Virus record (IMG/VR): IMGVR_UViG_2645727510_000017
Length of the DNA stretch: 18,155 nucleotides
Direction: 5' to 3' (one strand)
Source: a virus
Lineage: Duplodnaviria; Heunggongvirae; Uroviricota; Caudoviricetes
A program made the position numbers. Position 1 is the stretch's first letter. Each line of letters begins with the position of its first letter. Below, piece by piece: positions 3,001-6,000 of the stretch.

Positions 3001-6000
3001 GAGGACGACATCATCGGACTGTAACCCGACCCCGGGGGGGGTATCATCCGGCGTAAAAAACGATCGCTTTGGACACCGCCCCCCGTCTCACGCAGAGAAA
3101 AAATTCCCGTTTCAGGGCAGTTAACATGTTAACTGGCTGTCCGGGCATTTTTGCGGTTTTTATCTTTATTATTCAGTTTGTTGCGTGGAAAAAATGTTAA
3201 CAGGCTTTTTCAGCAAATGTTAACCAGGCAGCAGTTAACATTTGCGGCATGAGACGCCGGGAAAAATGGGCTGAACCATACCCGGCTGAGTGCGTTATGG
3301 ACCCGGGAGGAGGCTGTGCTGACAACGCAAAAACGAAAATTTGCGCTGGCGCTCATGTCCGGGAAAAACAAAACAGCGTCAGCCATTGCCGCTGGTTATT
3401 CGGCGAAGACCGCCAGGGTTAAAGGCTCGCAGCTGGCAAAAGATCCGGAGGTGCTTGCGTTTATAGCCCGTAAACAATGCGAGACGGTGGAGGTGGATGA
3501 GGTTCCTGTTTACCGGCAGAAAAAATCAGAGCCGGAGGATAAACCCCGTCGCCGTGAGGCGGCTGCAATACCACAGCCGGACGAAACAAATCCGGAGATG
3601 CCACCGCCCGTGGTGATATCTCCTGGTATTGAGTATATGGAGGACGGTCTTCCCGATCCGGTGAAAGCGATGGGGCGTCTTCTGGTGGAGAACATTAATA
3701 CCGACCCCAGGCTGGCGCTGGATGCGGCTTATAAGCTGGCGCAGTTCACGCACCACAAAAAAGGGGATGCCGGTAAAAAATCGGCAAAAGGTGACGCGGC
3801 GAAAAAAGCGGCTAACCGTTTTGCGGTGCCACCACCACCCCGCCTGGTGGTGAATAATGATAATGAGGGCAACGGATGATACCTGTGTGGAGCACGGCCT
3901 GCCCGGACTGGGCAGAGCGCCTGAAAAAGGGGCTGTCGATTATTCCGGCTCCGATTTATCCGGACCAGGCTGCACATGCACTGGCGATTTTTAAACAACT
4001 GCGAATTGTGGATGCACCGGGTAGCCCGACATTCGGGGAGTCCTGTGCACCGTGGGTGTTTGACCTGGTGGCGGCCCTGTTTGGCTCCTACGATGCGCAG
4101 ACCGGTGTTCGCCATATCAAGGAAGTGTTTATCCTTATCCCCAAGAAAAACAGTAAGTCCACGCTGGCTGCGGGGATCATGATGACGGCGCTGTTACTGA
4201 ACTGGCGGCAGGCGGCGGGCTACACCATTCTGGCCCCGACCGTGGAGGTGGCGGCTAACGCCTTCAACCCTGCCAGGGATATGGTACGACGGGACGATGA
4301 TCTGGATGACCTCTGTCAGGTGCAGACACATATCCGGACCATCACCCATCGGGTGACGGACACCACCCTGAAGGTGGTGGCAGCCGATCCGAATACGGTG
4401 TCCGGTATCAAGTCCGTGGGGACACTGATTGATGAACTGTGGCTGTTTGGCAAGCAGTACAAGGCGGAAGACATGCTACGTGAAGCCATCGGCGGGCTGG
4501 CCTCCCGTCCGGAAGGGTTTGTGGTGTATACGACCACCCAGTCGAATGAACCGCCCGCCGGGGTGTTCAGACAGAAACTGCAGTATGCCCGGGATGTCCG
4601 TGACGGCAAAATTCATGATCCGCACTTTCTGCCGGTGATTTTTGAGCATCCTCCTGAAATGGTGGAAAGCGGGGCTCACCTGCTGATGGAAAACCTCGCC
4701 ATGGTTAACCCGAATCTCGGTTATTCGGTGGATGAGGCCTTTCTGTACCGGGAGTACCGTAAAGCCCGGGAGGCTGGTGAGGAAGCATTTCGTGGCTTCA
4801 TGTCAAAACACGCCAATGTGGAAATCGGTCTTGCCCTGCGTTCTGACCGCTGGGCGGGCGCGGATTTCTGGGAGCAGCAGGGCAGGCGCGTCAGCCTGGA
4901 CGATATCCTGCAGCGCGCTGATGTGGTGACGGTGGGGATTGACGGCGGGGGCCTGGATGATCTGCTGGGAATGTACGTGACTGGCCGTGACAGGGAAACC
5001 CGCGAATGGCTGGGCTGGGGCCATGCCTGGGTGCATGAAACCGCGGTGGTCAGACGGAAGAGTGAGGCATCCCGGTTTCAGGATTTTGTGGCCTGTGGAG
5101 ACATGACGATTGTCCGTCGGGTCGGGGATGACACGGCGGAAGTGGCGGAGTATGTGCGTCGTATTCATGAGGCTGAGTTACTGGATCATATCGGTATTGA
5201 CCCGTCAGGTGTGGGGCAGATTCTGGATTCACTGGCGGAAGCCGGGATCCCCGATGAGAGTGTGGTGGGGATAAGCCAGGGCTGGAAGCTGGGCGGGGCC
5301 ATCAAAACCACCGAGCGCAAACTGGCTGAAGGGGTGCTGATTCACGGTGATCAGCCCCTGATGGCCTGGTGTGTCGGTAATGCCCGGGTGGAGCCTAAAG
5401 GTAACGCCATTCTTATCACCAAACAGGCCAGCGGACGGGGAAAAATTGACCCGCTGATGGCGCTCTTCAATGCGGTGTCCCTGATGTCCCTGAATCCGGA
5501 ACCGAAAAAGAAAGCGTATGAGGTTTTTTTCATATAACCCTGCTCACCCTGTAACCATCATGAACCGCTGCGGCGGTTTTTTTATTTTCAGGAGGCTGAT
5601 GTGACTCTTAAACGGGCCTGTTCCCTGCTGACGGTGAAATCCTTCAGTGAGGATGAACGGGTGATCACCGGGATTGCGTCAACGCCTTCTCCGGATCGGG
5701 ATGGTGACATCCTGGAGCCGGAGGGGGCGGAGTTTGGCAGTACGATCCCGTTTCTCTGGCAGCATGACCATTCCCGCCCTGTAGGCCAGTGTACGGTGCG
5801 TCGGGTCAGGGAAGGGCTGGAAATCACGGCAATGCTGGTGAAGCCGGAGCCGGGGATGCCCTCCCAGATGGCAGCCCGGCTGGATGAGGCCTGGGCTGCC
5901 ATTAAGACCGGGCTGGTCAGGGGGCTTTCTGTGGGCTTCCGGCCCCATGAATACACTTATCTGGACGGAGGCGGACTGCATTTTCTGCGCTGGGAGCTGA

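Follow-up and report, generated by a model that had tools for sequence, protein, structure and literature searches.

HK97 is the only structurally understood cohesive-end (cos) system of the HNH type, and its small terminase (TerS) recognizes a single A/T-tract site of 15 bp, located at +15 to +29 after the cut (PMC11331095). The repeats of lambda cosB (R3-I1-R2-R1) are the targets of another small terminase, gpNu1. In the case of SPP1 and SF6, the small terminase G1P binds short repeated boxes flanking bent DNA. Here we consider the 291 bp (3025-3315) that separate the stop codon of an HNH endonuclease gene from the GTG start of terS, the small-terminase gene, in a stretch of 18,155 nucleotides from a Caudoviricetes virus (IMG/VR record IMGVR_UViG_2645727510_000017), the whole of which is termed the window below. 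As a lambdoid prophage, the window belongs to the BP-4795 / 2851 / 1717 group of Shiga-toxin (Stx) phages, to which it is 96-98% identical across positions 2600-3900. By homology to phages with mapped ends, the gap is well supported as a cos packaging region with a C-tract in its cohesive end, and it contains five copies of an 8-bp motif, ATGTTAAC. The explanation of the whole that we favour, and to which we give a somewhat better than even chance, is a cos site of a lambdoid prophage with an HK97-type capsid, made of a conserved cleavage core and of an array of putative TerS sites resembling cosB.

The position of the cut comes from relatives. Phage Lys8385Vzw, which carries Stx1, codes for a TerS 96.8% identical to that of the window, and in the group that it forms with BP-4795, 2851 and 1717 the cos region is 96-98% identical and retains all five motifs. 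Analysis of its virion reads with PhageTerm identified a cos phage with 10-nt 3' cohesive ends and CGCCCCCCCT at the genome end (PMC7946995); the corresponding record ends with ...GGACACCGCCCCCCCT and begins with CTCACGCAG / CTCACGCAGAGAAAAAATTCCCG. This end is homologous to positions 3077-3086 of the window (plus strand), so that the predicted 10-nt 3' overhang is CGCCCCCCGT, the C6 tract (3079-3084) lies inside it and the left end of the virion DNA would begin at 3087. The predicted cuts fall after 3086 on the top strand and between 3076 and 3077 on the bottom strand. A more distant relative, a virome contig of 42,956 bp (IMGVR_UViG_3300015186_000014), has an Illumina adapter (1-40) fused directly to CTCATTCG, at CTCA, as expected when a physical end, freed of its 3' overhang, is ligated to an adapter. 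This adapter is an assembly artefact in a public contig, which records a physical genome end. The original prediction of a packaging initiation region is thus supported, since the C6 tract is part of the cohesive end that was mapped in a phage 97% identical (PMC7946995) and the G8 tract belongs to a core shared with HK97. To be sure, both the cos assignment and what the C-tract does are already in print for a near-identical phage. The published description for the Lys8385Vzw group gives only the 10-nt cohesive end, and in the searchable literature we found no description of the motif array, of the conserved core or of their evolution.

The core was delineated with some 100 divergent relatives (TerS 37-49% identical), gathered from species-representative genomes and from IMG/VR. 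They have a common layout: a G-run (6-12 G) followed by TATCA, about 25 nt, CGATCG, GGACACCGC, a C-run, a cut between T and CTCA(C/T)GCACAGAAAAAATTCCC, a Shine-Dalgarno sequence and finally GTAAAC-ATGTTAAC. This core is found in many genera of Enterobacterales, in an Acinetobacter metagenome-assembled genome and in Burkholderia phage vB_E354, and HNH homologues lie upstream of cos in most relatives. In the window, the left element is a C4-G8 tract followed by TATCA (3030-3046, plus strand; G8 itself at 3034-3041), about 45 bp before the top-strand cut. A G-run with (T)ATCA is present in the Enterobacterales relatives, in HK97 and in Acinetobacter (G6), the Burkholderia phage having a short G5 only; the run varies in length from G6 to G12 and its left edge is variable even in close relatives. 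Just left of the cohesive end, a block of conserved columns in the divergent-relative alignments extends from CGATCG, with its GATC, to GGACAC (3061-3076, plus strand). The CGATCG at 3061-3066, which separates the G-run from the cut and contains a GATC site for Dam, is kept in most relatives that have the cos core. The most conserved part of cos is the left-end core CTCACGCAGAGAAAAAATTCCCG (3087-3109, plus strand), with A6 at 3098-3103 (+12 to +17 from the cut), which is nearly invariant in all relatives, including vB_E354 and the Acinetobacter genome; its location corresponds to that of the single TerS site of HK97. As G8 and C6, present where the original prediction placed them, are part of this conserved core, they are cos elements and not chance homopolymers. 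Judging from these alignments, a cleavage core of about 80 bp (G8, CGATCG, GGACAC, C-tract, CTCA, A6) is common to the terminase family.

The array follows the core. ATGTTAAC/GTTAACAT occurs exactly five times in the 18,155 bp of the window, always inside the 122 bp of 3120-3241: at 3120-3127 (minus), 3126-3133 (plus), 3194-3201 (plus), 3217-3224 (plus) and 3234-3241 (minus). This is the number and the location that had been claimed; dinucleotide-preserving shuffles yield a mean of 0.48 copies per window and none of 200 reaches five. Allowing one mismatch revealed no additional clustered copies of ATGTTAAC in the window, and copies in the same orientation share a slightly longer consensus, (A/C)ATGTTAAC(T/A)G(G/C)C. 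Recognition motifs had been thought to flank the cleavage site. This part of the proposal does not stand: all five copies are on the terS side, from +34 to +155, and none is upstream of the cut, an arrangement similar to that of lambda cosB. Sites 1 and 2 form the palindrome GTTAACATGTTAAC (3120-3133), which is real and extends further than noted before, being perfect over 18 bp as CAGTTAACATGTTAACTG (3118-3135, +32 to +49). Site 3, AAATGTTAACAG (3192-3203, +106 to +117, plus strand), has a conserved position. Sites 4 and 5 are the arms of an inverted repeat, GCAAATGTTAAC (3213-3224) and GTTAACATTTGC (3234-3245), which spans 3213-3245 (+127 to +159) and proves to be, as predicted, perfect over 12 bp, with 9 nt between arms. 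Between sites 2 and 3 the sequence has a T-rich spacer (about 3146-3185, plus strand), likewise present as described, where T-runs succeed one another about 9-10 bp apart (T5 at 3148-3152, T5 at 3157-3161, T3 at 3165-3167) before a conserved block, ATTCAGTTTGTTG; it is possibly intrinsically bent DNA, and its T-runs are partly kept in sister lineages despite about 50% divergence of the spacer.

Signals of other kinds are scarce in this region. No consensus of the integration host factor (IHF) was found in 3025-3315 at one mismatch or fewer. A scan of 2300-4000 for promoters and terminators gave no plus-strand promoter and no terminator near the array, with counts not above those of shuffles, and a single weak minus-strand sigma-70-like match, composed of two motif copies. 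Rfam returned no match at E <= 1, and the RNA fold of 3087-3330 is unremarkable (z = -1.6). Two blocks outside the motifs, ATTCAnTnTGTTG (3171-3184) before site 3 and GGCAGC in the site 4/5 spacer (3225-3233), are kept across diverged array variants and may be extra contacts. A chain of overlapping mini open reading frames (ORFs) also begins at the motif copies (3126-3200, 3194-3223, 3217-3252 and 3249-3422), each stop overlapping the next ATG (ATGTTAA, ATGA); they would code for 24 residues (hydrophobic, MLTGCPGIFAVFIFIIQFVAWKKC), 9, 11 and 57 residues, without a Pfam match. We rejected this chain as a real feature: it is broken in the lineages where the motif reads ATGTTTAY and the TAA stops vanish, hence it is probably an incidental by-product of the motif sequence.

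The origin of the motif can be read in the relatives. In about 90 of them ATGTTAAC is the very start of terS (ATG TTA ACA, for Met-Leu-Thr), at +40 from the cut, and the (G/A)TAAAC that precedes it creates a near-palindrome. The window palindrome aligns exactly with this GTAAAC-ATGTTAAC start, the ATG at 3126 (+40) occupying the position of the ancestral start codon. The terS gene of the window begins 190 bp further on at GTGCTGAC, a diverged copy placed behind its own strong Shine-Dalgarno sequence, and the additional 190 bp or so of the window lineage include three further sites. Arrays are also found in other lineages. As cases in point, the stretch from the cut to terS contains the direct repeats GTTAACCC/GTAAACCC in Pantoea-type relatives, AGTTAACC occurs in a Proteus-type relative, and in a third group the repeats, GTTAAC and GGTTAAT, precede the G-run; separate copies of GTTAAC(CC) thus stand close by in lineages where terS no longer starts with ATGTTAAC. 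In 2.6 kb around cos of 13 lineage representatives, which are related and therefore not independent samples, GTTAAC is observed 20 times for 0.78 expected from the flanks. In the Burkholderia phage, with a GC content of 63%, terS starts with TGTTAATGGCTTTAACA, with TGTTAA...TTAACA; two of the codons involved are rare ones, TTA (5 of 335 Leu) and ACA (14 of 203 Thr), which points to selection on DNA, not on protein. The array is most plausibly a lineage-specific expansion of an ancestral GT(T/A)AAC near-palindrome that overlapped the terS start codon. Scans of IMG/VR with exact patterns (ATG-type terS starts and the ATGTTTAC inverted repeat) returned nothing related, besides an unrelated operator-like site considered below.

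Conservation of the array within its own lineage bears on its function. The region had been proposed for comparison across related phages; that comparison finds the core conserved and all five copies kept in 68 of 69 distinct close-relative variants, the remaining variant having lost one palindrome half. Among close relatives (90-99% TerS identity) the whole block 3087-3380 is nearly invariant, which makes footprinting with them uninformative. The informative variants of the extended architecture are three: a prophage of E. coli 2012C-4221, which has HNH, terS and a terL that an insertion sequence (IS) truncated; a metagenome contig (L246), the sole true relative among 55 matches of a metagenome scan; and a locus of E. 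coli A34. All three have five sites at the same positions, with every copy changed to ATGTTTAY and with spacers about 50% identical to those of the window. The palindrome becomes TAAACATGTTTA, and remains symmetric, site 3 becomes ATGTTTAT, and sites 4 and 5 become ATGTTTAC / GTAAACAT, their arms and the GGCAGC spacer positions being conserved. Over 3110-3304 in five variants, 30 of 38 motif columns are invariant, compared with 52 of 157 other columns (Fisher p = 3e-7), and the eight variable motif columns are all concerted, position 6 changing from A to T in all five copies and position 8 from C to T in three. Concerted change at conserved positions is what one would expect if a single protein read all the sites. 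On this comparative evidence, selection maintains the five-site array as a cis-element beside the cut.

The A34 locus deserves a separate mention. It is at the end of an island of about 14 kb resembling phage-inducible chromosomal islands (PICIs) and P4 (NZ_CP028741.1, 1659851-1674456; positions 1-14500 of our extract L207, with cos at 1220-1637 of L200). The island codes for an integrase, AlpA (Pfam E = 6e-16), Icd-like proteins, a DUF927 primase-like protein, SSB, ProQ/FinO and PerC, with waaB/waaO as cargo, and we found in it no terL or capsid genes. What it keeps of the packaging region is the G-run, the cut site, the A-tract and the complete array, then only a 46-codon stub of terS. Gram-negative PICIs carry helper-type cos sites for packaging by the helper terminase (PMC6739421), and this island looks like a satellite that captured a 3' cos of the HNH type. 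Retention of the array without a usable terminase gene argues for a cis role in packaging, not mainly for regulation of terS. Relatives of the A34 island are few, and a related island in EC12 appears, by eye, to have a lambda-like cos instead.

Which protein would read the array? TerS is the leading candidate that we infer from sequence comparison. The terS product has a single Pfam match, to Terminase_2 (PF03592, E=1.3e-8, 36.0 bits for a gathering cut-off of 26.1, residues 2-57). With phmmer it matches the DNA-binding domain of SF6 G1P (PDB 4ZC3/2CMP/3ZQP) weakly, at E 0.18-0.7. A single-sequence AlphaFold2 model, of low confidence (pLDDT 62), has four N-terminal helices with a helix-turn-helix (HTH) at 18-41, and the top Foldseek match of this low-confidence model is again 2CMP, with a target-normalized TM-score of 0.68 but an E-value of 0.9. 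All relatives, wherever they have the GTTAAC core, retain GYS.K.A..KGSQLA, the recognition-helix segment of the predicted HTH. An HTH with KTA pairs with TTAAC, and one with KSA with TAAAC, in seven of eight lineage groups, A34 being an exception; with so few lineages, this covariation of HTH and motif is at most suggestive.

The sequence of events that we would propose is then as follows. The terminase, with the adjacent HNH nuclease, would cut concatemeric DNA to leave the 10-nt 3' overhang CGCCCCCCGT and, by homology to mapped ends, a virion left end at 3087. The five ATGTTAAC copies would be bound by the predicted N-terminal HTH domains of the Terminase_2-type small terminase, and the terminase would thereby be placed beside the cut, on its left-end side, to start packaging, while the T-rich spacer may allow joint contact of separated sites. 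The array would in this way be the functional counterpart of lambda cosB. Several points weigh against this proposal. The predicted cut position in the window is carried over from ends mapped in a relative. The A34 locus is mosaic: the nearest match of its stub is the window type, that of its array the 2012C-4221 type, so that a window-type HTH stands beside an ATGTTTAY array and the covariation is weak. Most relatives have only the near-palindrome at the terS start, where coding and ribosome-binding constraints also explain conservation. Finally, the A6 tract (+12 to +17) could be the primary TerS site, with the repeats serving something else, because HK97 TerS recognizes a single A/T-tract site 15-29 bp after its cut.

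This last point opens the way to a different reading, where TerS reads the A-tract core as in HK97 and the repeats bind another component of packaging or cleavage, be it HNH, TerL or a host nucleoid protein. Besides the HK97 precedent, it has in its favour that A6 is the most conserved feature here and that the phage lineages examined have HNH and TerL together with the motif. We think it unlikely: the window TerS is unrelated to HK97 gp1 and probably has an exposed HTH of the SF6 G1P type, a class expected to read short repeated motifs, the region has no IHF consensus, and identity of HNH falls to 30-40% in lineages that retain GTTAAC. The location of the motif at the terS start in most relatives, where the near-palindrome overlaps the ATG and the spacer after the Shine-Dalgarno sequence, would rather suggest that the repeats regulate expression of terS and terL, through autorepression by TerS at the start-codon palindrome, a local promoter or translational coupling, and not packaging recognition. 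The weak minus-strand sigma-70-like match made of two motif copies, and the three mini-ORFs that start at motif copies, each overlapping the next start, would fit this view. However, the window array is 75-190 bp upstream of the real terS start, the scans gave no plus-strand promoter, terminator or Rfam match and an RNA fold at z = -1.6, the mini-ORF chain is destroyed in ATGTTTAY lineages, and the A34 island keeps the array without a functional terS to regulate. A regulatory role is, for these reasons, less probable still.

Chance history might also account for the repeats, as neutral relics of duplications of the terS 5' end (ATG TTA AC, Met-Leu-Thr) with no present function. About 90 relatives do begin terS with ATGTTAAC, the stretch 3126-3145 is similar to a deleted 5' end of terS (ATGTTAAC...GCTG.TCCGGG), TGTCCGGG recurs at 3356-3363 and the present start GTGCTGAC is a diverged copy. 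We find this very improbable, given that two copies are inverted, which is not a product of tandem duplication, that the copies are exact while spacers diverge by about 50%, that all five changed in concert in sister lineages, that independent GTTAAC arrays arose in other lineages and that rare codons maintain the motif in Burkholderia. The original prediction had offered, as its own alternative, that the repeats are operators for the neighbouring ribbon-helix-helix (RHH) protein. This protein, of the DUF3950 family, does look RHH-like in sequence, its gene accompanies the extended array in E. coli prophages, and an unrelated phage has a similar inverted repeat before an RHH-like ORF, a single anecdote. 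Yet lambda (LC730321.1) codes for a DUF3950 protein nearly identical over its first 50 residues or so, including the putative DNA-binding region, while its 48.5 kb contain not a single ATGTTAAC or ATGTTTAC and one GTAAACAT, at 6275. Where relatives have GTTAAC arrays, the upstream flank that was fetched, 1-3 kb, contains no DUF3950 homologue; no motif, at one mismatch or fewer, lies near the promoter of the DUF3950 gene itself (2618-2658); and the gene is frameshifted in two prophages with intact arrays. We consider the operator proposal effectively refuted.

In lambda, the DUF3950 (YlcI/YnfO) ORF is intact at about 48100-48330 on the minus strand, beside the right cohesive end; the gene is therefore found beside cos in lambdoid phages with quite different terminases. 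The unrelated phage just mentioned (IMGVR_UViG_3300024059_000755) has, at 850-945 of our extract L204, AAAATGTTTAC-N10-GTAAACATTTT and a third GTAAACATTTT overlapping a TTGACA promoter-like hexamer, upstream of its RHH-like ORF. This has the look of an operator region built on a similar half-site; as a single case, the resemblance may be due to chance.

The neighbourhood of the gap is that of a lambdoid packaging module, in the order Rz, an ORF with a TonB_C domain, DUF3950 (minus strand), HNH, the gap, terS, terL, a protease-capsid fusion and the portal gene. The DUF3950 gene (2417-2617, minus strand; Pfam PF13132 E=4.4e-20) is outside the cos element. The HNH endonuclease gene (2659-3024, plus strand; Pfam HNH E=3.7e-8), directly upstream of cos, is annotated as such in BP-4795. 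On the other side are the Shine-Dalgarno sequence GGGAGGAGG (3305-3313) and terS, from its GTG at 3316 to 3879 (plus strand), then terL (3876-5537, plus strand; Pfam TerL_ATPase and TerL_nuclease), coding for the large terminase with its ATPase and nuclease, whose product is 59% identical to TerL of Pseudomonas phage vB_Pae_BR123a. Pfam matches in the capsid module are a Phage_capsid and Peptidase_S78 fusion, and Phage_portal. Between Rz and DUF3950, an ORF of 113 residues (1944-2285) has a TonB C-terminal domain (Pfam E = 1e-14); after the portal gene, an ORF of 461 residues (9111-10496), called a portal protein in BP-4795, has here scattered sub-threshold Pfam matches. In the PPompW prophages (LC567822.1, PPompW_132418; positions 1046-2504 of our extract L105) an IS110-family element, ISEc20, abuts the cos G-run, joining at about 3038 of the window. 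These prophages are without lysis genes, DUF3950 and HNH, and they display Q and tRNAs, then the IS, a partial cos and terS, which means that the left part of cos is gone together with its HNH.

The HNH-gap-terS segment is widespread: 1253 of 5426 complete E. coli genomes carry it, in up to seven places per genome, as do many Stx1 and Stx2 phages. This invites a broader view, which we put forward tentatively as a possibility to which we would not yet lend much weight. The array would be a cosB-like specificity module expanded from the terS-start palindrome; the ATGTTAAC and ATGTTTAY versions would define packaging-specificity groups among co-resident lambdoid prophages of pathogenic E. coli, and satellites such as the A34 island would capture the module. 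The recognition rules of such a module would decide the cross-packaging of prophages, defective prophages and satellites, and hence the spread of Shiga-toxin genes. In practical terms, the predicted cut (3086/3087) and a cos unit of about 220 bp would be usable for cos-plasmids or for re-orienting assemblies of these phages.

How does this locus compare with the systems described so far? With HK97 it shares the order HNH, cos, terS and terL, followed by HK97-fold capsid genes, the window HNH being the positional counterpart of gp74. In both, cos lies between HNH and terS, with a 10-nt GC-rich 3' overhang (by homology in the window); HK97 has G9-ATCA about 42 nt from its right end, where the window has its G-run about 45 bp before the cut, and both have an A/T tract in the first 30 bp or so past the cut, in HK97 a T-tract just inside the left end. 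By contrast, the window TerS belongs to Terminase_2, is weakly similar to SF6 G1P with a predicted N-terminal HTH and has no similarity to gp1; and while HK97 has one TerS site, with terS at +50, the window lineage has a 229-bp leader with five copies of an 8-mer. HK97 works with a different TerS at one site; an SF6-type HTH terminase reading an array of several sites would thus give a second tractable model, for which the natural ATGTTAAC/ATGTTTAY pair provides a built-in specificity-swap contrast.

The comparison with SPP1 and SF6 concerns the protein. Their G1P belongs to the same Pfam family, Terminase_2, and the DNA-binding domain of SF6 G1P provides the best, though weak, PDB matches of the window TerS, the similarity being limited to about 50 N-terminal residues. 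SPP1 and SF6 differ in that they package by headful (pac), without cohesive ends and without HNH, whereas Lys8385Vzw is reported with cohesive ends. The comparison with lambda concerns the DNA. Lambda has a 12-nt 5' overhang, no HNH and a winged-helix TerS of the Nu1 type, where the window has a predicted 10-nt 3' end and Terminase_2; an IHF site lies between the lambda repeats and none was found in the window region; and the motifs are unrelated in sequence, with binding genetically demonstrated for lambda and inferred for the window. The architecture is nevertheless alike: in both, the small-terminase gene is separated from the nick site by copies of a short motif, in both orientations, and these stand solely on the left-end side. 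Bendable DNA lies between the copies in lambda, and the T-runs at 3148-3167 suggest that the spacer of the window may be intrinsically curved. If the broader view set out above is true, a 3'-cos system of the HNH type would have independently reached, through an SF6-type small terminase, the multi-site recognition architecture of lambda.

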